A stretch of 64,000 bases of DNA from Candidatus Bathyarchaeota archaeon (GCA_963697165.1 CAVOMX010000006.1:5206-69205); one strand, 5' to 3'; positions 29,830 through 55,806 are shown, counted from the stretch's first letter. Notes: generated by a model from the letters alone, not told the origin. Numbers and translations: made by a program.

Positions 29830-29832
29830 ATG

Positions 29833-33374: not shown

Positions 33375-33393
33375 AGGGTTAAATTTTAACCCT
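33375..33393. repeat. Palindrome site (perfect arms)
   Basis: AGGGTTAAA T TTTAACCCT. Confidence 0.85.
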
Positions 33394-33522
33394 TAACAAA
33401 TGTTAAGTAATCTGTTATCCCCAAATTTTTAACGGTGATACTAACCTTGAAGTCTAGCGCGCGCAAATTTTATAACTTTAAGCCATCCAAAAGGGTTTGA
33501 GGAAAAGGTAGGTCTACAAATA

Positions 33523-34005
33523 ATGTGCCCAATAAACCAAAATTTACCATCTGAAATTAGCCAACGCGTTCGTGAAATTATAAATGAGTTAAATAAATAT
33601 GGAATATCTGCCGAAAACGTCGAACCAGATGCCCAATTGAAAGATTTTTGGAATGTTATAGTTGGAGGTTTCGACCTTGAAAATATATCACAAGAATATA
33701 AAAAATCTATTAAAGGTCCCACGTCGAGTGGTTCAGAATCCATAAAAGGAAAAAACCTTCAGGTTAAATATACATTGTTTCAAAACGAGCAAGTTTTACT
33801 ATTGAAAGGGTCCGACCTCAGAAATATGGGAATCACACTAATCAACCCTCAGATTATTCATGGACTGATGAGACCTATGCCAGTTTTCGACTTCTCCAAA
33901 CCGAAATTGGGCTCTGGTTCATATCTGACAGATGAGCCCCTGTCTGAGCCGCAACATACGTATGGTTTCGGCGATGGGAGCCCCTACGAACGAAATTCTG
34001 AGTAA
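33523..34005 (+). CDS. Hypothetical protein
   Basis: 160-aa ORF, no recognised motif. Confidence 0.5.
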   Translation: MCPINQNLPSEISQRVREIINELNKYGISAENVEPDAQLKDFWNVIVGGFDLENISQEYKKSIKGPTSSGSESIKGKNLQVKYTLFQNEQVLLLKGSDLRNMGITLINPQIIHGLMRPMPVFDFSKPKLGSGSYLTDEPLSEPQHTYGFGDGSPYERNSE

Positions 34006-34175
34006 CCAAATTAGCAAATCATTTTTAAAAAAATGGACTATAATCCACTGACGACTAAAAAATGATAATTGATTGATAAAGCTACCTAGGGAAGAACGAA
34101 CTTAAATCCTTAAATGAAATGCGCGCACGAGGCATACCTCGTTTATTTTTTACCGAAGTTTGTTGAACAAAGAAA

Positions 34176-34703
34176 TTACATTTTTGATATGATTATTTCT
34201 AACAATCGCTTCATGATATCAAGGGATAATCCCCTATCACTGGTTGTAACCGCTTGTAGAACATCTTGTCCTTTCCGAACAAAAAATACTGCATTGCTAT
34301 CTGACCAGTAAGCTTCATCACCAAAACCTTTGACTGCCTTTAAATTTGGAGTTACTTCTTTAAAATAACTCAAAACACCTTCAGGATTATAGCCATCCAC
34401 GTCTTTTCGAGTAAACCAAACCTGAAAATAAGTGTGGATTTTGGGATTACTACTTGTATAGACACCGCCTTCCCAGTCTTCATCCTCATATTGGCTATAA
34501 TCATCAATAGGTAATTTAGTGATTTGGGCAACCTCATCAATGCTGAGGTATTTTCTTAAATCAAGGCCTTCCACGGGTGTTGTTTTTTGCTCTTTTGGTT
34601 TATCTTTTGGAGTTTTCTCAGTCTTTTTCTTTGGTTCCCATTCTTTAGCAATTTTATCCAAATGTTTAGTTGCTTTCTCTAATTCTTTAAAAAAATCTAC
34701 CAT
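34176..34703 (-). CDS. Hypothetical protein
   Basis: 175-aa ORF with natural composition. Confidence 0.6.
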   Translation of the reverse strand: MVDFFKELEKATKHLDKIAKEWEPKKKTEKTPKDKPKEQKTTPVEGLDLRKYLSIDEVAQITKLPIDDYSQYEDEDWEGGVYTSSNPKIHTYFQVWFTRKDVDGYNPEGVLSYFKEVTPNLKAVKGFGDEAYWSDSNAVFFVRKGQDVLQAVTTSDRGLSLDIMKRLLEIIISKM

Positions 34704-35133
34704 AAACCATACTACTAATATGAATTCTTTTTAAGTATTTCCAACACCTTTCAGTTCTACAGCCTTTTTTAAATCTATAAAATAGCAGTTAATACAGTCA
34801 GGTGAAGGACCCGGACAAGTTTTATGACACATGGTCTAACCACCCTTTTTAATAATATTAAAAACTTGCTACTCCTTTTTTTCTGAATTATCATACCATT
34901 TCCACATTTTTTCAATAGCTTTTGTGGAATATCCTCTTTCCTTTAGCATTTGATTAAAAGTCTTAGAGGATTTCATTTTAGTAACGTATATATTTGTGCC
35001 TTAAGAAAATTGCTAATTATAAAACTATATCTGTATTTTTGTATAACGCAAATACCCAATCAACAAAAATTATTCAATCACAGTGAAATAGAAAAAAATT
35101 AATCAAAATATAGAACATTATTATAGAAAAATA

Positions 35134-37092
35134 TTAAGGTGGAGCATAGAGGAGGGCGCAATCAACTTCCCAGCTATCTTGAGTTGTATCATTTATTTCT
35201 GAAGTTCCCAAAAACCTTAAGGTAACAGTTTCTTCAGTTATTGACCGAGTGACATTATTCCATTGATTAGATGCAAGATCAGTTATGAGACTGTCCCATG
35301 ATGCTCCATTCCAAATATAAACATCAAGAATTTCTCCACTTGCAGATCCAGTAAATATTGATATTTCATTGTAGTTGTTACTAACATCGACTTCAGTGAA
35401 TTGAATTTCAAGGTCCAATTCATAGTTTGCGTCAGCTAAACCTGAAAGATTAATTACCCCAAACCTGTAAGTTCCTGTGTTTCCTGTTCTATGTGACCAT
35501 TCGGCAACATTTGTTGTGGATGTTAAATATCCTCCTGATGATCCTCTAGCATATGCTGTTCCTGTTCCATCAGTATACACATACCATTCCAGAGCACTTT
35601 CATCTAAACTTGTAAGTCCTGAAACAGTATGATTGTCAGATGTTGGAATAGATTGTGAATCGGTGTATCTGTTAACATTAATATTGTCATTTTGGATTAC
35701 ATGAACAAAAACTTCTGTGCCTCCTAATCCTGCTGTGCTGTCAAAAGTTATAGTTACCCCAGTAGTGCTTCCTGATTGTGGCTCTATAACAAATCCTGTA
35801 TCCTCTAAAGCATGATCTCCAGAAACATCTCCAGACATTGATGCTTCTATAAAAGCTGTATCCCAATCTCCAACATCAAAACTGCTTCCTGTTCCATCTG
35901 AACCATCAACCAAAGCTACATTATTAGCTCCTGTGGATAATGAAGAACCTAAAGCGTGTCCAACATCCCAGTTTGATCCAGTAAATTCTACAACAACAAC
36001 ATAAACTTTTACTTCTGTTCCTGTTTCTCCACGTTCAACTATTAGGTTATCGCTTGAATCAATATGTGCATGAGAAATAACTCTGTTTCCATCATTTCTA
36101 CTGTTTATATTTCCGATTACTCCTTGAACGAAGGGAACACATTTATCTTTATCAGATATTCCAGAAACAGCTTGAGAGTTTGTTTTAGATCCAGAAGCAA
36201 TAGTAACTGCTCCTCTCCATCTAACAACAAACTCGTTTGGTCCTCCAACTGATCCATTGTATCTCCATACTTCACCTCTAATTCTAACTGTTGCGGTTTG
36301 TCCTGTTGCTCGGTATACTGTTAATTCATCTGTGTCTGTTAATTGAGCTCCAGCAGAAAAAACATTCCAGTTAGTATTTGAGCTAGATCCTGTTGGTCCA
36401 GCTGAAGTTCTTCTTGCAACATTATTTCTAAAGAAGGCATTTTCCAAATCTCCAACATCATTTACAGAAGTTGTTGAACCTCCAGCCCCAAAATCAAATT
36501 GTATGTGTTCAACTTTTATTACTGCTTCAGCTCCTCCATTTGTTTCTGTTAAAGTATCAAATATGCTGTCAGGACCAACTCTTTGATCAGCAAAGTTCCT
36601 GTGAGTTCCCTTGTCTGAAGAACTGTCAATATTCGAAGTTGTGTTTACATAATGAGTTGAAGCAAAGCTTTGAACAACTGAAGAGGACGGTGAACTTGAA
36701 ATGTATGCAACATTTGTGCCAATTGCAGTTGTAATCACAAACTCATATTTTGTGGACTGGCTGAAACTTTGAGTCACTCGTAGAACTGTAGTTGCTCCTG
36801 CATCCAAAGATGAGCTACCTGAGATTATGGTTACATTATTTGCTGAGTTGCCATTTACTTTTACTTCGTTTATTGTAGCAGATTCTGTTCCAAAATTGTT
36901 GACTTTTAAATCAGCATATGAAACATCTGAGGTCCATTGACAATTAGTTATTTCAAGTTCTTCTACAGACATAAACGAGATTGTCATAGAACCCAACCAC
37001 GTTGTTGCTGCTATAGCCACAGCTACCGTTACTGCAATTAGAATAATGCCTGAAATAACTGGACTCAAGGCTCTCTTATCTCTAAGAATCAT
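35134..37092 (-). CDS. Archaeal type IV pilin-like protein with a large beta-rich C-terminal domain
   Basis: Class III signal peptide KRA/LSPVISGIILIAVTVAVAIA; S/T/G-rich extracellular region. Confidence 0.85.
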   Translation of the reverse strand: MILRDKRALSPVISGIILIAVTVAVAIAATTWLGSMTISFMSVEELEITNCQWTSDVSYADLKVNNFGTESATINEVKVNGNSANNVTIISGSSSLDAGATTVLRVTQSFSQSTKYEFVITTAIGTNVAYISSSPSSSVVQSFASTHYVNTTSNIDSSSDKGTHRNFADQRVGPDSIFDTLTETNGGAEAVIKVEHIQFDFGAGGSTTSVNDVGDLENAFFRNNVARRTSAGPTGSSSNTNWNVFSAGAQLTDTDELTVYRATGQTATVRIRGEVWRYNGSVGGPNEFVVRWRGAVTIASGSKTNSQAVSGISDKDKCVPFVQGVIGNINSRNDGNRVISHAHIDSSDNLIVERGETGTEVKVYVVVVEFTGSNWDVGHALGSSLSTGANNVALVDGSDGTGSSFDVGDWDTAFIEASMSGDVSGDHALEDTGFVIEPQSGSTTGVTITFDSTAGLGGTEVFVHVIQNDNINVNRYTDSQSIPTSDNHTVSGLTSLDESALEWYVYTDGTGTAYARGSSGGYLTSTTNVAEWSHRTGNTGTYRFGVINLSGLADANYELDLEIQFTEVDVSNNYNEISIFTGSASGEILDVYIWNGASWDSLITDLASNQWNNVTRSITEETVTLRFLGTSEINDTTQDSWEVDCALLYAPP

Positions 37093-37272
37093 CTTTTTAC
37101 ACGATTATCATTAAGTTCTAGTTTATTTTTGAAATAGATTATGAATTAGAGGAACATATTTGAGAAATGAATTCTAAAATAACGGAGGCTTTCTTTTTCT
37201 CTCTTACTTACTCACCCTCACGTGTGAAACGCGCGCGCAATTATCAATATGCACGCTCAAAAGGGGTAACCC

Positions 37273-39864
37273 TTATTTATTCGTAAAGACCAGTTTCCCG
37301 TTCTTCTCATCGACGACAATTACCGAGTTTTTATTAACTTTTTCTTCAAGAATCATTTTTGACAATTCATTCTCTAGGTTTTTTTGAATCACCCGCTTGA
37401 TCGGTCGTGCGCCGAACTGTGGATCAAACCCGATCTTGGCGATATAATCCACGGCTTTTTTCGTGACCGTCAATTTAATATTGCTATTTTCCAGCATCTT
37501 TTGGACAAGTTTGAGTTGAAGTCCCACTATTTTCCGCACTTCCTCCTGTGTCAGTGGTTGAAACATGATAATCTCGTCGACGCGGTTCAGGAATTCAGGT
37601 CGAATGCTTTGTTTCAGCAGATCGAAGACCTGTTCTCGTGTCTGATTCACGATCTCTTCGCGGTTTTGTTCATTTACTCGCTGGAGGTTGTCCTGAATTA
37701 TGTGGGAACCAAGGTTGGATGTCATGATGATGATGGTGTTTTTGAAATCCACGGTCCGTCCCTTGTTATCCGTCAATCGGCCATCGTCCAGCACCTGAAG
37801 CAGGATATTGAAGACATCCGGATGAGCTTTTTCGATCTCATCAAGAAGGACCACAGAATAGGGTTTTCTTCTTATCGCTTCGGTGAGCTGCCCGCTTTCC
37901 TCATACCCAATGTAACCGGGGGGAGCACCGATAAGCCGTGAAACTGTGTGCCGTTCCTGATACTCTGACATGTCAATCCGCACTATGCTGTTTTCGTTAT
38001 TAAAGAGGAATTCTGCCAAAGCTTTGGCTAATTCGGTTTTTCCAATCCCTGTGCTGCCTAGGAAGATGAAAGATCCGATCGGTCGTTTGGGATCCTGCAG
38101 ACCAGCCCGGCTTCTCCGAATGGCATCAGCGACGGCCTTGATAGCTTCATCCTGGCCGACAACCCGCATATGAATTTCCGTTTCTAGATTAAGCAATTTC
38201 TGCTTTTCGCTTTGGAGCATTCGGCTCACAGGGATACCTGTCCAGCGAGAAACGACTTCAGCGATCTCTTCCGCATCGACTTCCTCATTCACCATGGCGG
38301 ATTCTTTCTGTAGCTTAGACAGTTTGTTCTTTAGAGTTTCAATGGTCTTCTCTGCTTCTGGAATTCTAGCATACTCAATTTCAGCAACCTTTCCTAGGTC
38401 CCCAATGCGGTTCGCACTCTCCGCCTCAAATTTCAGTTGTTCAATCCTATTCCGTTTAATCTGAATCTTATCCACAAGATCTTTTTCAGACAGCCACTTC
38501 GCCCGCAGCTGATCCCGTTCCTCACTAAGGTTCGCGATCTCCTCATTCAGCGATTCCAGTTTTGTCTCATCTTTCTCCCGTTTAATGGCTTCCCGTTCAA
38601 TCTCTAACTGGCGAATCTTCCGGTCTATAGTCTCCAGTTCTTCAGGAACCGAATTAATTTCGAGTTTAAGTTTCGAGGCTGCCTCATCAATCAAGTCGAT
38701 GGCCTTATCCGGGAGGAACCGGTTGGAAATATATCGCTGCGAAAGTTCAACTGCGGCAATGATCGCCTCATCTTTTATCCGCACATGATGATATGTTTCA
38801 TACCGCTCCTTCAACCCTCGAAGGATGGAAATCGCGTCCAGCGTATCAGGCTCATTAACCATCACTGGCTGGAACCGCCTTTCCAGCGCTTTGTCTTTTT
38901 CAAAATATTTCTGGTACTCATTGAGCGTCGTGGCGCCGATTGCCCGTAATTCGCCCTTAGCTAGTGCGGGTTTTAGAATGTTCGCGGCATCCATTGCTCC
39001 TTCACTGGCACCGGCTCCGACGAGGGTGTGAATCTCGTCGATGAAGAGTACGATTTCGCCCTCAGCCGAAACCACTTCCTTGATCACGCTTTTCAATCGT
39101 TCTTCGAATTCACCTTTATATTTTGCACCGGCGATAAGCGCTCCCATGTCGAGTGAATAAATTTGCTTTGATTTCAGATTCTCCGGGACATCGCCATCAA
39201 TTATCCGGTGAGCAAGTCCCTCTACGATGGCGGTTTTGCCAACTCCTGCCTCGCCGATGAGGATTGGATTGTTTTTTGTTCGTCGCGATAGGATCTGAAG
39301 GACTCTTCGGATCTCCTCATCGCGACCGATGACTGGGTCAAGTTTTCCCATTCGAGCCAGATCATTTAGGTTCAACGCATATTTATTCAATGAATTGTAG
39401 GTCTCTTCGGCAGTTTGTGAATTCACAGTCGATCCTTTCCGCAATTGCTTAATTGCCGTCCTCAAATCCCCTTCGGTGATCCCGCTACTCTCGAGCAGTC
39501 TTGAAGCGATATCATTTAAAGGTATGATTCCTAAAAATAAATGTTCGATAGAAATGAAATCATCCTTGAATTCAGAAGCAAATTCTGATGCCTTCTGAAG
39601 GGCTTGGTTAGCACTAGATGAAAAATATTGTTGTCCACCAACAACCTTAGGAAAGGAATCAATTAGCTTATCAAGCCCCTTTGATAATCTATCGGGGTTT
39701 ATATTTAATTTTCTCAATAAATAGGGAACTATATTTTCATCAACCAGCAACATACCTTTCAACAAATGCGTGGGCTCAATTGATTGGTTTTGTTTAGCCA
39801 TGGCGATTTCCATGGCTTTTTGGATGGCTTCCTGCGCCTTAATAGTAAAATTATTCAAATTCAT
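37273..39864 (-). CDS. clpB: Chaperone ClpB
   Basis: Two AAA+ domains (GEAGVGKT, GSTGIGKT) and a coiled-coil middle domain. Confidence 0.96.
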   Translation of the reverse strand: MNLNNFTIKAQEAIQKAMEIAMAKQNQSIEPTHLLKGMLLVDENIVPYLLRKLNINPDRLSKGLDKLIDSFPKVVGGQQYFSSSANQALQKASEFASEFKDDFISIEHLFLGIIPLNDIASRLLESSGITEGDLRTAIKQLRKGSTVNSQTAEETYNSLNKYALNLNDLARMGKLDPVIGRDEEIRRVLQILSRRTKNNPILIGEAGVGKTAIVEGLAHRIIDGDVPENLKSKQIYSLDMGALIAGAKYKGEFEERLKSVIKEVVSAEGEIVLFIDEIHTLVGAGASEGAMDAANILKPALAKGELRAIGATTLNEYQKYFEKDKALERRFQPVMVNEPDTLDAISILRGLKERYETYHHVRIKDEAIIAAVELSQRYISNRFLPDKAIDLIDEAASKLKLEINSVPEELETIDRKIRQLEIEREAIKREKDETKLESLNEEIANLSEERDQLRAKWLSEKDLVDKIQIKRNRIEQLKFEAESANRIGDLGKVAEIEYARIPEAEKTIETLKNKLSKLQKESAMVNEEVDAEEIAEVVSRWTGIPVSRMLQSEKQKLLNLETEIHMRVVGQDEAIKAVADAIRRSRAGLQDPKRPIGSFIFLGSTGIGKTELAKALAEFLFNNENSIVRIDMSEYQERHTVSRLIGAPPGYIGYEESGQLTEAIRRKPYSVVLLDEIEKAHPDVFNILLQVLDDGRLTDNKGRTVDFKNTIIIMTSNLGSHIIQDNLQRVNEQNREEIVNQTREQVFDLLKQSIRPEFLNRVDEIIMFQPLTQEEVRKIVGLQLKLVQKMLENSNIKLTVTKKAVDYIAKIGFDPQFGARPIKRVIQKNLENELSKMILEEKVNKNSVIVVDEKNGKLVFTNK

Positions 39865-39979
39865 TTTCTTTTATCCTCATCCGACTATTTTCGAATTTCA
39901 TTAATCGGAATTGAAAAGCTCAAACTGTAACCTCATTCATTTTAATTATAAACTTAATCTAAATATTTTTTTGTGTGTA

Positions 39980-40006
39980 GAGTTAGAATTTAACCCCAAA
40001 CCCAAA
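39980..40006. repeat. Palindrome site with CCCAAA tail
   Basis: GAGTTAGAATTTAACCCCAAACCCAAA. Confidence 0.7.
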
Positions 40007-40016
40007 TTTTAATCCA

Positions 40017-40268
40017 TTAATCCTCTCCATATTCGTCTTCTGCTAATTCGACTGACACTGAATCTTCATGGCTAGATTTTTTAAGGCGTTTTGCAGTTTT
40101 GGGTGTCATTTCTCTTCCTCTCATAAAACCGTCTTCTGCAGCAGTGATTTCATCGTCTTGCAGCATTTCTTCTCTTTGTTCATCATTATAGATGTCTTCT
40201 GTTTCAAGTTCATTGGACACTTTAGAATCGTCAGTTAAAACGAACCGTTTCTTCTTTTTTGCTGTCAT
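40017..40268 (-). CDS. Small acidic hypothetical protein
   Basis: 83-aa ORF with DDEITAAEDGFMRG. Confidence 0.65.
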   Translation of the reverse strand: MTAKKKKRFVLTDDSKVSNELETEDIYNDEQREEMLQDDEITAAEDGFMRGREMTPKTAKRLKKSSHEDSVSVELAEDEYGED

Positions 40269-40305
40269 TAAATCACATCTTATATAACTGTTGAACTTCT
40301 ATAAA

Positions 40306-40321
40306 GGGTTAAATTTTAACC
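40306..40321. repeat. Palindrome site
   Basis: GGGTTAAATTTTAACC. Confidence 0.8.
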
Positions 40322-40435
40322 AAAAAAAAATTACGCTGCTTATGTAACTTGAATTTCAACGGATGAAAAGTAGCATTACAACGAAATTAAAGTGGAATGA
40401 AAAAGAAAAAAAGAGTGTTGTTAGTTTTGTTTTTC

Positions 40436-41281
40436 TTATGATGTTTCTTTTGTCATTTTCTTTGCGAGGTTGTAGATTACGGGAACAAGCATTATACCCA
40501 TAGCAATTGCGAAAGCCCATGAAATGTTAGCAATTATATTTGTTACTCCCGAGAATGTAGCGAAGATAGCACCTGCACCAATAATTAGGAAAATGCTGTA
40601 TAGAACAAATTTTGCGTATCCTGCAACTGGCACAAATTCTTTATGATCATCAGTTATAGATTTTATTAGTCCGTCAGTTAAAGCAATTCCAGCGCCAATA
40701 ATTACGAAACCAAGAATCAACGAATAAACAAGGTCTCCTCCTAGTAGCATAATGTCAAGAGCCATCATCAAGATTACAGCGAGTAAGCCAATCTGTAACA
40801 GATTTTTTAGCATATCAGCAATTTCTTCTTTAGCTTCGGTAAAAACAGGTTTTAGCGTATTACCTACTAGAGTCGCCAAGAATCCAACAAGGACTGTTCC
40901 CAAGACGATTATTACGACTCCACCCAATAGCCTAGGTAAGTATGCTGCGATATCCACCAAGAAATTGCCTACTGTTCCGCCAATGTTGAGGATTTGTATA
41001 GCTAGAACTATAGAAATTACTATTATGAAAGCTGTTGTTATGCCGCCAATAAATGATGACAAGTCCATTCCGCTTTTTTTGAAAGATTTTCCAGTGTCTG
41101 TTTCGTCAAAACTCTTCTCAAGACCCATCTTTTCGACAACTTTGTTTACTGTTCTTCCAAGAAATTTTCCAACAACATACCCAATGATAACCACTATGAT
41201 AGCTGCGATTATTGCAGGTAAAGCACTAGTAACATCAGAAAGAAAATCATTTAACATTACTCCAAGATCCACATAAACCAC
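40436..41281 (-). CDS. MscS-associated TM-helix repeat membrane protein (CmpX-like)
   Basis: Repeated LPAIIAA / YLPRLLGG TM motifs. Confidence 0.7.
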   Translation of the reverse strand: MVYVDLGVMLNDFLSDVTSALPAIIAAIIVVIIGYVVGKFLGRTVNKVVEKMGLEKSFDETDTGKSFKKSGMDLSSFIGGITTAFIIVISIVLAIQILNIGGTVGNFLVDIAAYLPRLLGGVVIIVLGTVLVGFLATLVGNTLKPVFTEAKEEIADMLKNLLQIGLLAVILMMALDIMLLGGDLVYSLILGFVIIGAGIALTDGLIKSITDDHKEFVPVAGYAKFVLYSIFLIIGAGAIFATFSGVTNIIANISWAFAIAMGIMLVPVIYNLAKKMTKETS

Positions 41282-41715
41282 CAGTTATTATATCAAAGGA
41301 TTTGCTTAAGATACTTGTTATAGCCGACACATGAAATTTAATCCAAATAGCTCGTGCGTTGATTCTCGATGAAAAAGTCAACTCTTTTTTCCATAAACTG
41401 CATCATAAGTTACTTCTGCCCCCAAAGTCACTAGTAACGCAGCAATTACTGTAGCGAGTTCTGGACTAATTATTATCGATATCCCAACCAGTATTTCCGA
41501 GAAAAGAATATTATTCAAATAGTTTTGAATGAAACTCTGGAAAAAAAAGCTATTTTCAATCGATTTTTTTCTACAATGGGTGATGTTGTGATGTTTTGTG
41601 ATTTTGTGTTGTGCGTATAAAGAAAGAAAAAAGGATTAGAAAGTAGACAAAAACTAGAGAAAACAGAAAAACGAATGTATACAGACAGGAAACAAGACAG
41701 AAAACAGAGAGATAA

Positions 41716-41737
41716 AGGCTAAAATTTAACCCCAAAC
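41716..41737. repeat. Palindrome site
   Basis: AGGCTAAAATTTAACCCCAAAC. Confidence 0.7.
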
Positions 41738-41889
41738 ATTTTAGAAGCTGCAAACCATTGGTCTTACAATTAACAATCACTCAAGTCTCTAAACAAAGTG
41801 CCTTTGTTATTGTCTTACTACAGCCACATATATTTAAGAGAGCTTGAACCTGTTCAGAGATTGTTTAGGTGTAATATACGAAAGAAAAA

Positions 41890-42966
41890 GTGATCTTAAG
41901 GATGGCGCGGTTTTCAAACTATTTCGTTGAAGAAAAAAAAACTGATTGCTATCAAGAAAAGTTATGGCTGGGGCTGAGGATCTATCGTGGACTATTATTA
42001 AACTTGTTTGGAAGAAGGATTCCGCTGTTTTGTGGGCACAAATTAACCTATAAATGTAATCTTCAATGCAAGATGTGTCCTTTCTGGCAAAGACCCAGCG
42101 GAGATTCTAGTATAGAGCAGGAAAAAGCGATTCTAAGGCAAATCTATGCTTCAGGTGCTTGTGGGATCGCGTTTGAAGGCGGAGAGCCTCTTCTGAGAAA
42201 GGATTTGGCGGAAATTCTTGCTTTTTCTCGGTCGTTGCCTTTGCACACAAGCCTTGTCACTAATGGAACTCTCCTCGAATCCAGAATAGACGAGATAGCC
42301 CCATTCATAAACGGCGCTGTCTACGTTTCGTTAGACGGTCTAGAAAAAACGCATGACACGATTAGAGGCGTTAGTGGTTGTTTTAGAAAAGCGGTAAGAG
42401 GCATAATGGCGTCCAGAGAGAAGGTCTCAGTGACAATCAACACGACGATAATGGCTGAGAATATCCACGAGATTGAAGATTTGGTGAAGTTGGCAAATGA
42501 ATTGGATACAGTAATATCGGTGGCTGTAGCGCATGAGTACGGTCAAGCCAAGGCTTCCGCAGCTGCCAGTCGCGAAATCAGAGAAATAGCTGGAAAACTT
42601 GCCAAGATGAAAAAGAGTGGGTATCCCATTATTAATTCACCCAGTTATTTTAAAGTCATTGCTAAAGAGAAAAACTGGACCTGTAAACCTTGGGTATCAG
42701 TTAATGTTAGTCCAGAGGGCAATTTGGTCCTGCCCTGTTATGTTCGGAATGAATACGCGAGTAGCGTTTCGGTTTTTGAAACCGATATCAAAACTGCAAT
42801 CTCTGGATTTGACTGGAAGGAAACACAGAACTGCCAAAACTGCAGTCTCCATTGTTATGTAGAGCCTTCTCTGGTACTTTCAGGGGATTTTCGAACTTTC
42901 CTGAATTGGGTGGCTCAAATTAGCGGGCTCAACTCTAAAAAAGTAAGAGCTAAAAAAGTCGTTTAA
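41890..42966 (+). CDS. Radical SAM protein with SPASM/twitch-like tail
   Basis: CNLQCKMC, GGEP, TNG, SLDG motifs and C-terminal cysteines. Confidence 0.9.
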   Translation: MILRMARFSNYFVEEKKTDCYQEKLWLGLRIYRGLLLNLFGRRIPLFCGHKLTYKCNLQCKMCPFWQRPSGDSSIEQEKAILRQIYASGACGIAFEGGEPLLRKDLAEILAFSRSLPLHTSLVTNGTLLESRIDEIAPFINGAVYVSLDGLEKTHDTIRGVSGCFRKAVRGIMASREKVSVTINTTIMAENIHEIEDLVKLANELDTVISVAVAHEYGQAKASAAASREIREIAGKLAKMKKSGYPIINSPSYFKVIAKEKNWTCKPWVSVNVSPEGNLVLPCYVRNEYASSVSVFETDIKTAISGFDWKETQNCQNCSLHCYVEPSLVLSGDFRTFLNWVAQISGLNSKKVRAKKVV

Positions 42967-42997
42967 CTTGAATCAAATATATTTTACTGGTAAATTA

Positions 42998-43023
42998 GGC
43001 TGCGAATCCCACTCCCCACACCA
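42998..43023 (+). other. Possible degenerate tRNA 3'-end fragment (att scar)
   Basis: GGCTGCGAATCCCACTCCCCACACCA resembles the T-arm/acceptor/CCA end of an archaeal tRNA-Leu; no 5' half present. Confidence 0.35.
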
Positions 43024-43111
43024 TTATTTGATGCAGTTTTTAGTAATCTTTAAATCGTGTCGTCTTTTTTTTCGACCTTGATTAGCGATGGATGTTGTTA
43101 CGGCTGTTCTT

Positions 43112-43140
43112 GTTTGGGTTTGGGGTTAAAATTTAACCCC
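43112..43140. repeat. Palindrome site (perfect arms) with left GGGTTT tail
   Basis: GTTTGGGTTT GGGGTTAAA A TTTAACCCC. Confidence 0.85.
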
Positions 43141-43369
43141 CCCTTGACGGAACGACGGACGATCTGAACGACGGCGTCCAACGTGGGCGACGAACGACGG
43201 ACCAAACGACGACGGACGGGATGTAACTGTATACACGGTTTAGGTACTACCTGTTACCTATTTCCTTTGGACTGGGACTAATTCTGGTTCGCATATTATG
43301 AAACAAATAATGAAAAAATAACTATACTAAAAAGCTTTAAATCGGCCTATAAAATATTAGAAGTAGAAA

Positions 43370-46334
43370 ATGTGGAGACAAAAATTGTTTAAAAAAGTTT
43401 GTTTTCTAATTTTGCTGATGCTAGTCTTCTCTCTCTTTATTTCTTCTGCTTTTAGCCAAACCGATAATCAGGTTCCTGTTGCTGATGCAGGTGGTCCATA
43501 TTCTGAGATCGAAGGAGCGGTTGTTAGTTTTGATGGTACTGGATCTTACGATCCTGACGGAAATGTGACTTCTTATTATTGGATTTTTGGTGATGGAGAA
43601 AACGGTTCAGGAGAAACAGTTGCTCATACATACAGCCAAGAAGGAAATTATAATGTTACTTTGACTGTCTACGATGATAATTTCGATTACAGTACAGATA
43701 CAACATTTAGTAAATATCGAGGACGTCGATCCTATAGCCAATTTTTCTGCTTTTCCCACTTCTGGAAATGCACCATTAAATGTAACATTTTATGACCAAA
43801 GTAGTTCATATGACGGATTAATTTCTTGGGAATGGAAACTTGATAACGGTCAAATTTCTTACGATCAAAATCCTGTCTTCACTTATGATAGAAAAGGAAA
43901 ATATACTATAGAATTAAAAATAACGGAATCTGATGGTGATGAGGACACTTTTAGTATAAATGATTATATTGAAGTTTTTGTTCCAAATCAGGTTCCTGTT
44001 GCTGATGCAGGTGGTCCATATTCTGAGATCGAAGGAGCGGTTGTTAGTTTTGATGGTACTGGATCTTACGATCCTGACGGAAATGTGACTTCTTATTATT
44101 GGATTTTTGGTGATGGAGAAAACGGTTCAGGAGAAACAGTTGCTCATACATACAGCCAAGAAGGAAATTATAATGTTACTTTGACTGTCTACGATGATAA
44201 TTTCGATTACAGTACAGATACAACATTAGTAAATATCGAGGACGTCGATCCTATAGCCAATTTTTCTGCTTTTCCCACTTCTGGAAATGCACCATTAAAT
44301 GTAACATTTTATGACGAATCTTTATCTTATGATGGCGTGGTCTATTGGTTCTGGGACTTTGGGGATGGGACAACTAGCGAAGAGCCAAACCCTAGTCATG
44401 TTTACACGGAAGGAGTTTACACAGTAAATTTGACTGTAGAAGAAATTGATGGAGATTTCTATAATTATTCAATGCCGGACTTAATTAACGTAGGGCCTCG
44501 TCCTAATGCTTCTCCAGTAGCCAATTTTATTATCGAATCAGTTAATCCAAAAATAAATGAACAAATAGTCTTTACAGACACTTCAACTGACTCAGATGGT
44601 TCAATCACATTCTGGTATTGGAACTTTGGAGATCAAACAACTTTAACTATAAGAAATCCTATGCACCAATACCAAAACCCCGGTGTTTATAATGTAACGC
44701 TTACAGTAACAGATGATGATGGAGCAAATCAAAACACAACACAGCAAATATCAATATCTGAAAACACTCCACCAATAACTTCTCATGATTATGATGGATT
44801 GTGGCATAACACTACTTTTACAATAAATTTGAAAGCAACTGACATCCACAACAGTATACTTGAAACATTTTATAGAATAAATGACGGTCAATTGAAAAAA
44901 GTAAGTGTTGATGGTCAACCCCAGATAACCCTAGATGGTTCAAACAATAAACTTGAGTTCTGGAGTGTTGATATCTTGGGAAACGATGAAATACATAAAA
45001 CAATTTCAAACATAAAACTTGATAAAACACCTCCAGTTGCCGATGCAGGGCAAGATGTTTCAGTTAATGAGGATGCTATCATAACCTTAGATGGAAGTAA
45101 TTCTCATGACAACTTGGGAATTAACAACTACACTTGGATTCTTAATGATGAAACTCTTCAACAACTAAATTCAGTTACTCCTCAATACATTTTTCATACA
45201 CCAGGAGTTTATATTGTGGAATTAATTATCGCTGATTTTGCTAACAATTTAGCACTTGATGCCATTAAAATAAACGTCATGGATACCACTGACCCAATCG
45301 CTAATGCAGGTAATTATTCAGTAGTCAACCAAGGAGAAACATTGACATTTGATGGATCAAAATCAACAGACAATGTTAAAATAACTAATTTTGTCTGGAG
45401 TATTAATGATGAGACACCCCAAATAGTAGAAGAAGTAAATGCAACACACACATTTAGATTTCCAGGGGTTTATGAAATCAATTTAACAGTTTTTGATGAA
45501 CAAGGCAATTTTGGTACAGACAATATTTTTGTTACAGTAATAGACAATACTTGGCCAGTGGCAAATGCGGGTCTTGACCAAAATGTTGAGGAAGATACAT
45601 TGGTATATTTAGATGGTTCAGCCTCTTTTGATAATGTTGGAGTTGTAAGTTATCTTTGGTCTTTCATCGATGGTGAAGTTCAATCCTTGAATGGAATTAC
45701 TTCCAGTTATTCTTTTGAAACCCCAGGAACATTCGAGATCACTCTAACTGTTTCAGATACAGAAGGTCATTCTGCTAACGATACTGTTATTGTAGTTGTT
45801 AGAGATATTACTGCTCCAAAAATTGAATTTACGGAATTTAATAAAATAATCGAAGGAATTCCCACAACTTTTGATGCTAGCAAATCATATGATACATCTG
45901 GCATCGATAGTTTTTATTGGATTTTTGGGGATGGAAATGTAGAAAACGGTTCTGATTCTTCAGTTTCCCATGTTTATAATGAATCTGGCACATACAGTTT
46001 GAAGTTGTTTGTAACTGATAAAGCTGGAAATGTTAACTCTGGCGCGATTTCCGTTAACGTTTACTCGGATCCTAACAATTATCCTTCATCCGAAACAAGA
46101 CGAAGTAAATCCTGAACCGGAAAATCCAAAACCCTTAGATGCTGACATCAATCCAGATGATGGAGGGCTGAATGAACCAGAAGAATACGAGAATAAATAT
46201 AAATTCTGAAGATAATGATTCCTCTAGGTTTTATTTTAGCAGATATTTTGACAATAATAATAATTGTATTACTAGTGGGGTATGTACTGTACACAAAACG
46301 GCAAGTGCTTATTGATAAAATTAATGAGTATTAA
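43370..46334 (+). CDS. Large surface protein with many PKD domains and a TM anchor (frameshifts near 43707 and 46100-46200)
   Basis: Signal peptide; repeated PVADAG / WDFGDG / HxY..G.Y.VTLTV; TM tail MIPLGFILADILTIIIIVLLVGYVLYTKR. Confidence 0.85.
43466..44315 (+). repeat. 330-bp intragenic direct repeat (43466-43796 and 43986-44315)
   Basis: Copies appear identical except one extra T in copy 1 (CAACATTTAG vs CAACATTAG). Confidence 0.9.
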
Positions 46335-46565
46335 GCTACCTTTTTATAAATTTTAAAGATGGAAAAAACATCTATAAGAAAAAAGACCGAAAAACACAGA
46401 ATTTAACATTAGTTTTCATCGTTTATATAAGAAAATGGACAACCAAAAAAACAAAAAAGAAACGAATGTAGAGAAGTTTTCTAGACTATTCTACTGTTTT
46501 GTTTCTCACGTTATGTTTTCGTTGAAAGAAACTAAATTATTTCACCGCAAGGCATTATTAAAAAA

Positions 46566-46605
46566 TGTTAAAATTTAACCCTTAAAAAAGAAGGATGTTG
46601 CGGGA
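46566..46605 (-). repeat. Palindrome site with adjacent CGCAA/C-T tract
   Basis: Reverse strand reads TCCCGCAACATCCTTCTTTTTTAAGGGTTAAATTTTAACA. Confidence 0.7.
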
Positions 46606-46755
46606 ATTTTTTCGGAATCCTTTCTTGACTCAAGTTCAAATGTAAGACATTGTATTCCGCTGCAAACGTCTAACTTATTTACAATAGTGTGTCTTCAAAT
46701 CTGGGCGATGCGGGCGCTAATCTATTCTTAAATTTTTGGAGGGGGGAAGTAAAAA

Positions 46756-46959
46756 ATGGGGGGATGTTACGGGACTGAAGTTGTGATGGAATATAGACTT
46801 ATTCGAAAATTTGAGAAAGCCGGAGCAACTTCGAAAGAAAGAGCTGTAACCTTTGATGAAGCAAAGTTAGACATTATGGAACAGTATTGGCTAGATTATT
46901 TTGCAGGAGTTTTTCTTGGCAAAATAAAAAAGACAAAAAATCATCTATACTACATTTAA
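46756..46959 (+). CDS. Small hypothetical protein
   Basis: 67-aa ORF with a purine-rich upstream region, alone between two palindrome sites. Confidence 0.6.
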   Translation: MGGCYGTEVVMEYRLIRKFEKAGATSKERAVTFDEAKLDIMEQYWLDYFAGVFLGKIKKTKNHLYYI

Positions 46960-47103
46960 TATTGGTTCATCAATTTCTTCATTCAGCGGCTCTGGGCGTA
47001 TAATTTCTTTTAGGGGGTGAGAGAGCAGGCGCGCGAGCGGGCGGGCGTAACCACACACGTACACGCGTACACATTCGTAAATACGAACACGAATGTGTGT
47101 GTT

Positions 47104-47120
47104 GGGGCTAAATTTTAACC
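47104..47120. repeat. Palindrome site
   Basis: GGGGCTAAATTTTAACC. Confidence 0.7.
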
Positions 47121-47293
47121 TCAAATCAAAGCGCACCCCTGTACACGAATCTACGTATCTTTTTCCCTCTTTCTAACTTTCTAGAAAACATTAACATTGG
47201 CTTAATTTTTTTGTTTCTTTACTTCCGATTTCTCTTTGAAGTCTATTTGATAAGAAAAGAGTTGTAAGCGTATGCATGCGGTTTCCAACACGC

Positions 47294-47854
47294 TTAGTCA
47301 TATGATATCAATTCTTTTTCCTCAACTTGTTTATGAAGTTTAGCGATAGCTTTGTAAACGTTTTCCTCTTTTGTGGCTCCTGTGCAAACAATTTTCCCGC
47401 TTGCGAAGATAAGAATCACAACTTTTGGTTCATCCATTCTGTAAATGAGACCCGGAAACTGTTCGGGTTCATACATGGTTCTTTCGAGACTATAAGTAGC
47501 TTCTTCAAGCTCTATTCTCCCTAAAAGGTCCGCTGAGGCAACCATGTTCACTATTTTGATTTCGGGTTTTCCAGGTATGATTATTCCGCTTTTTTTCAGT
47601 TCTTTTACAACTTTCAGAACAGCTTTTTTTGATTCATTTTCAGACTTGGCTCCGGTGCAAACCATCTTCCCCGTACTGAAGATTAGGATGGCGGTCTTAG
47701 GCTTTTTTAGTCTGAAAACTAGACCTGGAAACCTTTCTGGACGATACTCAACTCCAGGATTCCCCTTAACAATCGCATTCAAGTCAAACCTTTGATTTAA
47801 CGTTACAGATGCCACAACATTTTCGATCCTGATAGAATCTTCAACAGTAGTCAT
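47294..47854 (-). CDS. tbp: TATA-box binding protein
   Basis: Two TBP repeats (NVVAS..YRPERFPGL; NMVAS..YEPEQFPGL). Confidence 0.97.
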   Translation of the reverse strand: MTTVEDSIRIENVVASVTLNQRFDLNAIVKGNPGVEYRPERFPGLVFRLKKPKTAILIFSTGKMVCTGAKSENESKKAVLKVVKELKKSGIIIPGKPEIKIVNMVASADLLGRIELEEATYSLERTMYEPEQFPGLIYRMDEPKVVILIFASGKIVCTGATKEENVYKAIAKLHKQVEEKELISYD

Positions 47855-47956
47855 TCATATCCCCATCATAGACATCATATTTTTTGCTTCTGTTAAGCCT
47901 TTTGACCCAAAGTTCTGTCTCATATACTGAGAGAACCGGAAAAAATTCCTATGAGA

Positions 47957-47979
47957 TGTTAAATTTTAACCCCAAATCC
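47957..47979. repeat. Palindrome site
   Basis: TGTTAAATTTTAACCCCAAATCC. Confidence 0.75.
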
Positions 47980-48038
47980 AGAGTAATTTAACTTTGTGGC
48001 AACAACAGTCCCTTTATGCTAAATTAAATTTTAGTCAG

Positions 48039-49028
48039 TTACACTCGAAGGCGGTTTATATCTTCATCACTAGCGGCAGTAGATCTAATGATTGTTACAT
48101 TTCCAGCTAGTACCCGTTGTACATTCACTTCCTCACAATTTTCAACATCCGAATACCTTATTGTTATCTCAGCTGCTTTCTTTGTAACCTTACCAGAACA
48201 ATTTTCTTCCAGTAATGTAATTGGACCCATGTAATCAACAACTTCAAGGTGTGGTAGTTGTTTTCGATTGCTAATCATTAAAAGAGACTGGTTTTCTTTC
48301 TCATTTCTCCCTACAATAATTTTTTTTCCATCAAATCGAAAATGTCTCCCTATTTTCAAAAGATTAACATCATCTATTTTTAGGTCTTTTTTGTATTTTA
48401 ATAAATCCTTTAGTCTTTCAGCAAACTTAGGGTCGGTTAGTAAACATCCACCTGATGGACATGGGTAGTCTTTTACGCCCCATTTGTTAGCTAAATCCAT
48501 TTGTGGCAATCGTCTTCGCCCTTGAATTGAATGCAGCTTCTCCCTATTCACTTGCCCGCTTTTTTCTATCTCTGTTTCAGGTAGAAGTTTTGCAGATAAA
48601 GGTCTCAGAATCATTCCTTCCATTTCGGCCTTCCTTTCAATAAGATCCATTGCCCTTTTGGTTTGAGAGAATGGTCTTTGATCCAAAACCTCCCCGGTTA
48701 CAACGCATTTAGCTCCCAGTTTTTGGGCTAATTCTTTAGCTTTTCTCATCATCATAATTCTACAATCTATACACGGATTCATTTGACTGCCATATCCACG
48801 AGGAGGATTAGCAATTAAATCCAAATATTCTTGACCCAATATGACTGTATGCGCCTTAATTCCAAAAGTCTTGACTACCGATCCTGCAGAACATTTATCA
48901 CAAAGACAAAAAGGGGTAGTAAAAATTGCTGCTTCTACATCTAGGTCTTGATCAATCATTGCTTTAACGGCCAATGTACTGTCTAAACCTCCAGAAAGTA
49001 GAACTAACACTTTGGATTTTTCATTCAT
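48039..49028 (-). CDS. PP-loop tRNA thiolation enzyme (ThiI/MnmA-like, no THUMP domain)
   Basis: SGGLDS, NPCIDCR, TGEVLDQRP and GGCLLTD motifs. Confidence 0.8.
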   Translation of the reverse strand: MNEKSKVLVLLSGGLDSTLAVKAMIDQDLDVEAAIFTTPFCLCDKCSAGSVVKTFGIKAHTVILGQEYLDLIANPPRGYGSQMNPCIDCRIMMMRKAKELAQKLGAKCVVTGEVLDQRPFSQTKRAMDLIERKAEMEGMILRPLSAKLLPETEIEKSGQVNREKLHSIQGRRRLPQMDLANKWGVKDYPCPSGGCLLTDPKFAERLKDLLKYKKDLKIDDVNLLKIGRHFRFDGKKIIVGRNEKENQSLLMISNRKQLPHLEVVDYMGPITLLEENCSGKVTKKAAEITIRYSDVENCEEVNVQRVLAGNVTIIRSTAASDEDINRLRV

Positions 49029-49205
49029 TATATTATCACCAATTAAATATTAACTGATAATTTGGTCAGAATTTGTTCAGTAAAATCTTATTTATAGAAT
49101 TCATGAAGACACCAATTCAATATTCGTCAGTTATAACGAAACAGAATGATGATATAACACCGTTATATATTTTTTCTTTTAAAGGCATAGATGTTTCAAC
49201 AGAGA

Positions 49206-49245
49206 TGTTAAATTTTAGCCACCAAATTCAAATCCAAAACCAAAC
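49206..49245. repeat. Degenerate palindrome site with tail
   Basis: TGTTAAATTTTAGCCACCAAATTCAAATCCAAAACCAAAC. Confidence 0.55.
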
Positions 49246-49418
49246 ACACACTATAGACAGCTATTACAATTAGCCATTGCTAATTGTGGAAAAACAATAA
49301 TTTAAAATAATAATACTTCATTGCTAAAAACAGTCTTTTTTCCAGAAAAACAGCGAACCTTAAAGGTTAATAGAAAACTTGACCACCTAACTAGTATTCA
49401 CTTTGGGAGCGGACATTA

Positions 49419-52209: not shown

Positions 52210-53373
52210 TTACTTTCTTTTTCTGAAGATTTTGATTCCGTCTCTTTCTGTGACATACTCGAAACCTGCCATTAACAACTCTTCGTCTTGTTTTAAACTT
52301 TTAGATGTTGCGGTGTGATACTCGTCACTCTCAAAGTTCACAAAATGGGTGTAAATAAGTGTAGATGTTATGTTCCTGTGTCCAAGTCTCTCTTTAACAT
52401 GAAGAATGTTTTTTGTTTTGAAGTATTCCAATGAACCATAGAGATGTCGAAGAGTGTGAAAGGTGATTTTGTCTATTCGGGGATTCTGTAGTTTATTGGC
52501 TACATGTTTTCGTTGTTGCCTGAAGTTTTTTCTGAAATGTTTTAGTTGAGTATTTCCGAATATTTTCTCTCCTGTTTTCGGTAGCATATTAAGCATTGAA
52601 ATTAGTTTGCCTGATATCTTGAATTGACGTGGTAAACCATTTTTTTCAGGTTTGTTGATTGTTAGGATTCCTTTCTCCTGGTCAAAATCTATCCATGTTA
52701 ATTGCCATGCTTCTCCATACCTGCAACCTGTCTCGTTCAATAATTGAATGAATGTCGCAACTTTCCGACTACAACCGCCAATTAATGCCTCGATTTCTTT
52801 TGTTTGTGGTAGCCACGGTAATTTTTCTTGTTTTTTCCCCATGTTTCAAAGTTGATTTGTTCAGAAATCTGTATGTTACATATTTGGCAAAATGATTTGT
52901 AAGCAATTGCAGAGTTTTTTTTAGCTCCATCAGTCCAGTTCTTTTCTGTTACTGTTCTGGTTTTATGGCTGAATTTTTTGGCCTTGTTAATAATGTGAAA
53001 GACACTTTCAGGGTTTGTTAAGGTTGCTCCACGTTTTTGCAGTAACTTCAACACGTTTACTCGGTTTATGATTGTTTTAGGTTTCAGTCCTTTAAGAATC
53101 AGTTTTGCTTCATAGTTTACTAAATGTCCTTTTGTGGTCGATTCTCCCGCAGTCTGTTTTTCGTTTTGTTTTGACTGCGTCCAAGTTTTTCACTCTCTCT
53201 GTTTCGAGAGCGCATATTTGGCGACCACGTGTTATCTGGTAGTCTTTATAATATTTTTCATTGAAACGATAACCACAGCTTCGACAAAGATATCTTTGAA
53301 ACACCTTGCCCTGAACGTAACGTAGACCATCTTTCCAAATCATAGAGTTGGTACATTCAGGACAAACCAGCAT
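52210..53373 (-). CDS. Tyrosine recombinase/integrase with N-terminal Zn ribbon (two frameshifts)
   Basis: CPEC..CRSC; catalytic GCR, FHTLRH, LGH, TLIY; three ORF pieces join. Confidence 0.88.
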
Positions 53374-55272: not shown

Positions 55273-55392
55273 GCAGTCCAAGATACTTTTTTTCTTCCTC
55301 ATTTTGTTCCACCCAAAATTACCTAGGTAAAAAGCTAGTCAACAACAAAATTACCTATGTAAAGTTCCAAACGATTAGGGAATACTATAAAA

Positions 55393-55408
55393 AGTTAAAA
55401 TTTAACCC
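55393..55408. repeat. Palindrome site
   Basis: AGTTAAAATTTAACCC. Confidence 0.7.
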
Positions 55409-55557
55409 GTAATTAAAAAAATTAAATGGTTTAGTTATTAAATTACGATTAATTGTATATCCGTACATTCATTCTTGATTAGAGAAATGAAAAAAACTGT
55501 ATACAGGGACTATACTATGTAAAGAAACTTGAAAGGCTAACATGGAGGTTTAAAGAA

Positions 55558-55770
55558 TTGGGTTTATGGCAAAAAATAATTCAACGAATTAGACGTAGAT
55601 TATTGCTCCCAGGAGAAAATTGGGGAAATAAAAAACATGGAGAATGCTTCAACTTTGATAATGGAACATGTCTAATCATACCAAGGGCATTTAAAAGAAG
55701 AAATTTGGACCCAAAATGGCCAGCATGCCCCCATTTCAAAGCAAAAAATAATCAAAGGAACAATATCTGA
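55558..55770 (+). CDS. Small Cys-containing hypothetical protein
   Basis: 70-aa ORF preceded by GGAGG; lies between two palindrome sites. Confidence 0.5.
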   Translation: MGLWQKIIQRIRRRLLLPGENWGNKKHGECFNFDNGTCLIIPRAFKRRNLDPKWPACPHFKAKNNQRNNI

Positions 55771-55806
55771 AATGTTGTAGAATAAAATTTCAACTTAGGA
55801 CTTATC

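Follow-up and report, generated by a model that had tools for sequence, protein, structure and literature searches.

Described site-bounded gene arrays and the locus under study

On Acinetobacter plasmids, small gene modules (pdif/dif modules) are located between short, inversely oriented sites, appear in different contexts and both ways round, and do not encode the recombinase that would move them; the pdif sites, which reside on bacterial plasmids, display the XerC/XerD 11-6-11 architecture. Archaeal integron cassettes, in the parts of Ghaly et al. (2022, PMC9668308) that bear on the present comparison, form arrays of mostly single, unrelated genes parted by a repeated site, with the cassette moving as a unit, and the same parts describe attC as an imperfect hairpin of 55–140 nucleotides (nt) with R''/L''/L'/R' boxes that is recognised as a folded single strand, the cassettes mostly sharing an orientation next to intI/attI. 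The REP/BIME/REPIN-RAYT elements (REP, repetitive extragenic palindrome) are presented as short extragenic palindromes of bacteria in the relevant portions of PMC2817692 and PMC3116915, and the archaeal dif site, as given in the pertinent section of Cortez et al. (2010, PMC2958812), possesses 11-bp arms and a 6-bp spacer, is found once per chromosome and is served by a single tyrosine recombinase without an FtsK partner. In this study, we analysed a stretch of 64,000 nt from a Candidatus Bathyarchaeota archaeon (GCA_963697165.1, CAVOMX010000006.1:5206-69205; the whole stretch is hereafter termed the window), in which a 17-nt palindrome, GGGTTAAAWTTTAACCC, recurs between genes, and where the original prediction had proposed a cassette array with one gene per site at 39980–49245. 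The reading we favour, to which we give about an even chance, is that this palindrome lies at the heart of a recombination site, specific to the genus and dispersed over the genome, by which exchangeable gene modules are delimited in flexible islands.

In its mode of operation the element appears to be most like dif modules and integron cassettes, yet it seems to fail the defining features of both systems. As in pdif modules, a radical SAM module of the window lies between inversely oriented sites, with 21-nt arms that are 90% complementary and tails that face inward; the site itself differs, as it is an 8-1-8 palindrome (or 5-7-5, if counted as arms and overlap) to which hexamer tails are attached, and an archaeal chromosome carries about 100 copies of it. 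With regard to integrons, the likeness noted in the original prediction to the integron core and the XerD arm extends to the letters, the half-sites GTTAAAT/ATTTAAC fitting GTTRRRY/RYYYAAC as far as the cited account gives it, but not to the features that define attC and dif. A gene and its site move as a unit between contexts for one module only (that of the radical SAM gene), and, unlike attC, the site is a perfect 17-nt palindrome without structural covariation, the genes stand in both orientations and no integron integrase is present among the four recombinases scanned. The archaeal Xer/dif site, on the portion of the description drawn on here, is likewise an inverted repeat with an AT-rich centre, but its geometry is different and it occurs once per chromosome rather than in about 100 copies.

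A radical SAM module ends at the palindrome in five contexts

The favoured reading is carried by a module that is delimited by two copies of the element, termed Sites 3 and 4 in the order of the array at 39980–49245:

41721..43141, plus strand: mobile module holding the radical SAM/DUF3463 gene (41890–42966) with its own upstream and downstream non-coding DNA, between inward-facing tailed half-sites
41716..41737: Site 3, at the left end of the module, two mismatches; its outer half (AGGCT) occurs in this context only, and the inner AAAATTTAACCCCAAAC is common to all five copies of the module
43110..43139: Site 4, at the right end of the module, TTTGGGTTTG tail leading into an exact palindrome (43123), 46.2 bits

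The module is 98% identical in the related genome G034 (contig C32), where, as in the window's genome, a site is present at both ends, and the flanks of the two copies are unrelated. A protein scan of metagenome contigs for radical SAM homologues returned 80 loci, of which three (L072, L073 and L137) contain the same module at 98–99% nucleotide identity, ending at palindromes and set in flanks that are unlike those of the window, unlike those of G034 and unlike one another. The module was thus found in five contexts in all, with four mutually unrelated left flanks and four unrelated right flanks. At the left junction the inner AAAATTTAACCCCAAAC is constant and the outer five bases vary (AGGCT, AGATT, AGAAC, GGATT, GGAAT), and at the right junction the inner TTTGGGTTTGGG(G/A)TTAAA is constant, the central base is A or T, and the DNA beyond the outer TTTAAC(C/T)C is unrelated. 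The point at which homology is lost is thus within the palindrome, and the tails are part of the module, facing inward from terminal inverted repeats of 21 nt.

Other shared segments also end at or beside sites. The segment 163883–165347 of contig C25 matches contig C10 of G034 at 94%, and the neighbouring segment, beginning exactly at the site C25 165334, matches contig C63 of G034 at 92%. The module at C10 16561–18903 is 98% identical in G034 and stops 4 nt before the site at C10 18907, and three within-genome repeats end at sites. Unique internal match ends were pooled over all foreign loci fetched (identity of at least 85%, length of at least 400 nt), and an end was counted as near if it lay within 20 nt of a site centre; 9 of 57 ends were near sites, a figure to be read against a rough chance expectation of about 9%, which was estimated rather than computed, and against the picking of these loci around site-rich regions, which weakens the case. 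The proportion differed with identity, being 3/4 at 95% or above, 4/10 at 90–95% and 2/43 at 85–90%; for matches of at least 90% identity, 7 of 14 ends are at sites. Joints between sites (40006 to 41709, 40328 to 43123, 41738 to 43110 and 47984 to 49298) were considered as traces of circles or deletions and rejected, as the shorter side measures 20–27 letters, i.e. the length of the repeat, which indicates cross-matching of the repeat; in the sequencing runs the best share of the window in any run was 0.33, and in the only RNA run 0.05. The idea of a gene-shuffling cassette system, as originally proposed, draws partial support from one strong case, the radical SAM module in its five contexts, and from several weaker ones; the ends of several shared segments lie off the sites.

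The palindrome is the core of a tailed element

In the window, three exact copies of the palindrome are present (0.00 expected), and 15 matches with three mismatches or fewer correspond to 14 distinct sites against an expectation of 0.34, the null being 100 dinucleotide-preserving shuffles, in none of which more than two such matches arose. The remaining copies of the array and those elsewhere in the window are as follows:

39980..40006: Site 1, palindrome GAGTTAGAATTTAACCC, then a CAAACCCAAA tail on the right; two mismatches, 35.6 bits
40306..40322: Site 2, one mismatch, without the CCCAAA tail, next to an A run; 19.8 bits
46565..46581: Site 5, weak tail-less copy with two mismatches; 12.5 bits
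47105..47121: Site 6, palindrome with two mismatches; about 145 nt of low-complexity DNA, ACGTGT-rich and then CTC-rich, to its left (46960–47104)
47956..47980: Site 7, palindrome with two mismatches and a weak tail, CAAATCCA; 29.9 bits
49205..49245: Site 8, degenerate palindrome with four mismatches and a long C/A tail, found by weight matrix only; 17.9 bits
15619..20382: second array, with sites at 15619, 16790, 17843 and 20366 in the island 15442–22033 and one to two genes per interval
33376..33392: single site, an exact tail-less palindrome, at the same place in genome G003, where the block is 93% identical
55392..55829: site pair (55392 and 55812) in the island at 52.1–57.8 kb

Seven of the eight array copies reported originally are therefore matched at three mismatches or fewer (39980, 40306, 41716, 43123, 46565, 47105 and 47956), some of them one base off the first position given (43122 becoming 43123), and the eighth (49205/49206) was recovered by the weight matrix alone. 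The motif is not peculiar to the array, as seven further copies in the window (15619, 16790, 17843, 20366, 33376, 55392 and 55812) and its spread over the genome show. At the site pair, a 729-nt repeat (54680–55408), 99% identical to a copy on contig C14, stops exactly at the palindrome 55392.

Each of the seven array intervals contains one main open reading frame (ORF), the orientations being minus, minus, plus, plus, plus, minus and minus, in agreement with the original description of one main, unrelated ORF per interval in either orientation. These ORFs encode a protein of 83 amino acids (aa) without a Pfam match, a 281-aa protein with an MscS-type transmembrane helix, the radical SAM + DUF3463 protein, an 813-aa PKD protein, a 67-aa member of a multi-copy family, TBP and a ThiI/NFACT-R protein. 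The region upstream of the PKD-domain gene and the 5' part of this gene are covered by a tandem duplication of about 520 nt (43466–44361), which includes a 242-nt block in two copies at 100% identity and, next to it, a 136-nt block in two copies at 85%. The TBP gene is one of five paralogues in this 2-Mb genome (window 47294–47854; C23 19756–20297; C11 101477–102009; C18 58051–58602; C3 31192–31710).

Alignment of all copies revealed that the palindrome is only the core of the element: one flank, and sometimes both, continues as CAAACCCAAAC(CC), and the flank opposite this tail leans towards the mirror image TTTG. The full element takes the form (TTTGGG)n-GTTAAAWTTTAAC-(CCCAAA)n, i.e. (TTTGGG)n-G-TTAAA-W-TTTAA-C-(CCCAAA)n, mostly with a single tail. 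Information content is at background beyond positions −4 to +27, the conserved part comprising about 32 nt, and the logo displays an 8-1-8 geometry, or 12-1-12 if the first tail unit is counted. After about 15 of 79 strong sites comes a low-complexity tract of 100–190 nt with a fixed order (ACGTGT-rich, CTCTC-rich, CACGC-rich, A run); these tracts are gene-free, cannot be aligned as one family and include 46960–47104 in the window and, elsewhere in the genome, C2 3392–3490, C9 33255–33350 and C19 37046–37150, among others.

Several identities for the element were considered and rejected. Symmetric changes, which retain complementarity between the palindrome halves, numbered 10 against 6.4 ± 2.3 in shuffles (183 of 2000 shuffles reached the observed value), one-sided changes numbered 145 in the same covariation test, and the predicted folds of degenerate copies amount to only −1.3 to −2.3 kcal/mol; the lack of excess compensatory change and the weak folds rule out a hairpin-dependent element. 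No element doublets at a fixed spacing were seen. A structured RNA or tRNA was dismissed, as Rfam models at gathering thresholds returned no match in the window or in locus L058 (C10 8.0–20.5 kb) and no tRNA gene was found in the window. A miniature inverted-repeat transposable element does not fit either: the long tails are not alignable as one family, no duplication is seen at the junctions and information content is at background beyond positions −4 to +27.

Distribution in the genome and in the genus

The genome that carries the window (G000; 1.99 Mb in 25 contigs, 81% complete and 77% coding by crude gene calls) contains six exact copies of the palindrome and 62 copies with two mismatches or fewer, distributed over 21 of the 25 contigs; the contig with the window, C6, is the richest (13 of the 62). 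A 32-nt weight matrix at a threshold of at least 14 bits identified 104 sites in this genome, as opposed to two in a shuffled genome; 94 of the 104 are intergenic, and overall we estimate about 100–120 copies, of which some 90% are intergenic. A scan of the genome and its relatives with a motif model had been suggested as a check; with one mismatch allowed, the motif was detected in 16 of 18 other genomes of the genus (0–36 copies each) and in none of 12 sampled genomes from other genera of the order. The exact 27-mer that combines palindrome and tail occurs in 27 stretches of a species-representative genome collection, 25 of which are labelled Bathyarchaeota, Bathyarchaeia, Bathyarchaeum or Thermoproteota. 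The other two, L019 and L036, bear bacterial labels ('uncultured bacterium' and an Ignavibacteria bin) and are probably misbinned archaeal contigs; L036, a contig of 6.3 kb, has the 27-mer on each of its strands right at the beginning. The motif is thus restricted to one genus of Bathyarchaeia. A viral or plasmid origin was rejected, the 22-mer having no match in a viral contig collection.

Thirteen arrays of at least three sites are present in G000, and their 44 intervals hold no called gene in eight cases, one gene in 15, two in 15 and three or more in six, a distribution that does away with one gene per site as a rule. Genes that share an interval often form a co-directional unit, and arrays with one or two ORFs per interval are also found in the contiguous relatives G003 (seven contigs) and G018 (10 contigs). 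Among 200 neighbouring genes no dominant family tied to the sites was found. Published work on Bathyarchaeia palindromes, on archaeal REP/RAYT and on archaeal integrons/attC yielded no account of the motif, supplementary lists being outside this search.

Islands, backbone and gene flow

Two loci are colinear with the backbone of the window, G003:C7 (with 20 kb for the whole 64 kb) and G034:C28, and neither contains a site. The backbone segments matched are 2–956, 4175–4838, 11104–15441, 22028–24532, 28751–30945, 49319–52478, 57851–59844 and 60202–63986, and the array falls in one of the islands between them:

30946..49318: variable island of 18.4 kb, absent from the colinear loci G034:C28 and G003:C7, which holds the array and the ClpB block

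Site 8 is positioned about 110 nt inside the right edge of this island. All 13 strong sites of the window are located in islands; as islands make up 81% of the window's intergenic DNA, this placement has P = 0.069 and is weak evidence, and the originally reported absence of copies from housekeeping blocks, while real, concerns blocks that hold only 19% of the intergenic DNA. Homologues of the array genes are dispersed across other contigs in relatives and the islands are missing from the colinear loci, such that gene order across the sites is not conserved, as the original prediction had supposed. Two further islands contain genes of other kinds. The island at 24.5–28.7 kb, which is without a palindrome site, carries two adjacent Lrp/AsnC-type regulator genes (24747–25825), and the island 52139–57850, which has the appearance of a small island for defence or stress, begins with a tyrosine recombinase gene matched in its catalytic half only and also encodes a TIR/SEFIR-domain protein (54277–55272), a YbjQ-like protein and a universal stress protein.

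Between G000 and the relatives G034 and G003, identity is 78–82% for backbone genes, compared with 85–98% for island genes (ClpB 94%, radical SAM 98%, ThiI-like 86% and TBP 86% to relatives). Because the island genes are far more alike than the backbone genes, the sequences point to recent exchange among species of the genus.

Placement relative to genes

If the element were a promoter element, an operator or a bidirectional terminator of the neighbouring genes, its position should follow theirs. Sites are indeed intergenic, their centre is TATA-like (TTAAAWTTTAA) and some copies come right after a T run. However, 105 intergenic sites at 12 bits or more are divided over the −−, −+, ++ and +− intergenic types as 33/27/25/20, where the shares of intergenic length are 0.29/0.26/0.27/0.18; since the split of sites equals the split of length, no preference for promoter, operator or terminator positions is apparent. 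Distances from sites to start and stop codons show no peak, and words of the motif have no positional preference upstream of start codons. Ordinary promoters of the genome display a TTTATA/TATATA box, some 45 nt ahead of the start codon, accompanied by a GGAGG-type signal at about −15, and both are unrelated to the motif, whose gene neighbours are diverse. On these position statistics we reject such a regulatory role, which we consider extremely improbable, and the original view of the sites as module boundaries rather than operators or terminators is upheld by the flat distances. Site-bearing intergenic regions are long, with a median of 346 nt versus 115 nt.

Placement also bears on the proposal that the palindrome binds a genus-specific protein, for instance one that silences or insulates acquired genes, one that forms a roadblock in the nucleoid or a paralogue of TBP on the symmetric TATA-like core, and thereby demarcates transcription units in islands. 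Perfect dyad symmetry around an AT-rich centre, without hairpin covariation, fits a dimer on double-stranded DNA, the sites part units of one to three often co-directional genes, and a palindrome site lies no more than about 600 nt from three of the five TBP paralogues. There is, moreover, an archaeal precedent, as the part of PMC11840125 considered here describes domain boundaries that are set by a nucleoid protein and DNA structure in an archaeon. These points are countered by the want of any fixed distance to gene starts or ends and of any excess in divergent or convergent regions, by the TTTATA-type boxes that serve as ordinary promoters, and by relatives in the genus that manage with 0–2 copies; nor would a bound protein account for a homology break inside the site in five contexts. 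We therefore regard this proposal as improbable, and return to a recombination site as the favoured reading.

tRNA-linked accretion on contig C10

Contig C10 of the same genome provides a local example of another process. Between 4.6 and 25.9 kb it contains seven direct copies of the 3' terminal ~32 nt of tRNA-Pro(GGG) with its 3' flank, which bound integrase-less modules of 1–6 kb and lead to the intact tRNA gene (25806–25884, minus strand) and an integrase fragment. A conserved arm of about 45 nt comes after each tRNA fragment, and in four cases the palindrome stands directly behind the arm. This series is a classic instance of tRNA-linked tandem accretion, and the palindrome does no more than trail an att-like arm in those four cases. 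The same ~45-nt motif, GTGAYATCACCCG-N8-CCGCAAACTCCCC-T6, is found 30–60 nt past stop codons in the window (16745–16789, 56491–56540 and 57810–57880, minus strand), as it is after the C10 tRNA fragments, often directly before the palindrome, and may represent a terminator or an element arm.

From this series it could be argued that the palindrome is an arm or accessory site of tRNA-targeting integrative elements, rather than the crossover, and that the islands are tandem accretions of elements mobilised by integrases. The fragments with their arm and trailing palindrome speak for it, as do the single orientation of all six C10 sites and the tRNA fragments near other arrays (C25 163200 and C11 99936). 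The arm is, however, present on only about 8–10 of 88 sites, no tRNA gene is found in the window and no tRNA fragment stands beside the eight sites of the array, while palindromes are the only boundaries of the radical SAM module. Thus, tandem accretion at a tRNA gene occurs in the same genome and some C10 modules start with a palindrome, but the array of the window is without a tRNA gene or fragment and has the palindrome as its sole recurrent boundary repeat, and we deem the accessory-arm explanation very unlikely.

Candidate recombinases and a proposed mechanism

If the palindrome is a recombination site, an enzyme would be expected to act on it. One candidate is encoded in the window:

52210..52842, minus strand: tyrosine recombinase, a 210-aa ORF of which only the catalytic half is matched, at the left edge of the island at 52.1–57.8 kb

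The original prediction had tentatively linked the array to this enzyme, a link for which no support was found: the gene is matched in its catalytic half only, its family is diverse and the counts of such enzymes do not track the motif. PF00589 hits occur in 24 of 25 genomes of the genus, and their counts compared with motif counts give rho 0.37 (p 0.12); genome G018, for instance, has 36 sites and two hits, and G005 two sites and eight hits. The tyrosine recombinase family is multi-copy and diverse, with at most 52% identity between genomes and many fragments, and is typical of mobile elements. No conserved recombinase candidate that tracks the motif emerged across the genus genomes. The absence of a linked recombinase weighs against a recombination site, as does the length of the 5-bp arms, which is short for a tyrosine recombinase.

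Four of the nine PF00589 hits in G000, including that of the window, were scanned against profiles, the other five being fragments that were left out. None of the four reaches the cut-offs for an integron integrase (26–62 bits on TIGR02249, cut-off 265; 21–33 bits on NF011946, cut-off 435) or for XerA, the best XerA score in this 81%-complete genome being 88.5 bits on NF040815 (cut-off 220). Two of the four (L155 and L156) possess an IS1-like zinc-ribbon N-terminus. Serine recombinases were rejected as agents, being present in only two of 25 genus genomes. A tyrosine recombinase as catalyst is a possibility that we put forward tentatively and without leaning towards it.

From the anatomy of the junctions, the simplest inference is that conservative recombination would take place within the AT-rich centre, with GGGTT and AACCC as arms and AAAWTTT as a 7-bp overlap. 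An excised module, presumably a circle, would carry one symmetric, two-tailed site, and its insertion at a chromosomal palindrome would generate two hybrid sites, in each of which the module half is tailed and the target half is tail-less and often degenerate; such hybrid sites match the junctions seen. The proposed symmetry of core and overlap would give no direction, so that modules could enter in either orientation, which may be why genes stand in both orientations, and repeated insertion would build arrays such as that at 39.9–49.2 kb. General recombination on a repeat of about 25–35 bp could yield similar products, and the element would then amount to no more than a REP-like repeat at which rearrangements tend to occur. 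That the sites constitute a dedicated gene-cassette system, in which modules of one to three genes are excised as circles, re-inserted either way at dispersed palindromes and moved between species, is a possible but somewhat doubtful extension of the favoured reading.

Evidence against a recombination site and a REP-like alternative

Further observations weigh against the favoured reading. Taken together, the ends of within-genome repeats show no significant excess at sites (6 of 320 versus 3.7 expected), and the break upstream of ClpB that sets G034 and G003 apart from G000 lies 75 nt off the site at 39980. The G034 copy of the C10 module lacks the palindrome at both ends, that of the C25 module lacks the left site, and the C10 module at 16561–18903 is bounded by tRNA-Pro(GGG) 3' fragments. 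The 'empty' junction of the 18-kb island carries no palindrome in G034 or G003, and homologues of the other array genes mostly lack a neighbouring site in relatives, five of the 12 loci fetched having none at all. Tails of adjacent sites are paired inward in three cases, outward in one, R-R in three and L-L in two, few sites being classifiable. Most assemblies may derive from short reads, in which a repeat could cause mis-joins, and the junctions at 41716 and 43123 are known from assembly only. Finally, of 77 other radical SAM homologues (67–87% aa identity), many of them on contigs with short flanks, only five have a site within 500 nt, and many have a conserved neighbourhood in common together with an ordinary TTTTTATTA promoter. 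The copy bounded by palindromes is therefore a separate, mobile form of a gene whose inheritance is otherwise vertical.

Some of these observations would be expected if the palindrome were a REP-like selfish or structural intergenic repeat of roughly 30 bp, able to propagate or persist by itself where intergenic DNA tolerates it, with breaks at sites arising as by-products of ectopic or interspecies homologous recombination and with no dedicated cassette system. The element resembles REPs, as far as these are described in the portions cited above, in being a short extragenic palindrome that is lineage-specific, present in about 100 copies and sometimes found at rearrangement junctions; its copies, 90% of them intergenic, are spread as intergenic length is and irrespective of how the genes are oriented, their number is very uneven within the genus (0–36), the regions that bear them are long, many lie away from detectable breakpoints and no cognate recombinase was found. 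On the other hand, the element differs from REPs in its CCCAAA hexamer tails and in having no conserved hairpin, no compensatory changes, weak folds and no fixed-spacing doublets. The search for a Y1 (RAYT-type) transposase (PF01797) gave no match in the 81%-complete G000, whereby such an enzyme was rejected as the agent, and no description of REPs in archaea was found in the literature on archaea, REP and RAYT. Furthermore, a REP-like repeat leaves the inward-facing tails unexplained, and has to contend with a left break of the radical SAM module at the same point of the palindrome in all five contexts, with five different outer halves. We consider it a serious but rather unlikely explanation, and retain a recombination site that bounds exchangeable modules as the favoured one.

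Implications for genome plasticity in Bathyarchaeia

Little is known of the ways in which genes are acquired and shuffled in the genomes of Bathyarchaeia, which rank among the most abundant uncultured archaea of sediments. The occurrence of a palindrome-bounded gene, nearly unchanged, in several neighbourhoods suggests an undescribed way of gene shuffling in an uncultured archaeal genus. Should the element prove to be REP-like only, it would still be a rare and clearly defined repeat family of this kind in archaea. If the favoured reading is true, the genus would possess a cassette system that falls under neither the integron nor the Xer paradigm, and the element would provide a sequence tag for flexible genes in metagenomes. 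In the more doubtful form of a dedicated system, it would be a counterpart of integrons and dif modules that is free of orientation and docks at many places on the chromosome. Site-bounded modules that move between species would then constitute a concrete, testable mechanism of genome plasticity in Bathyarchaeia.

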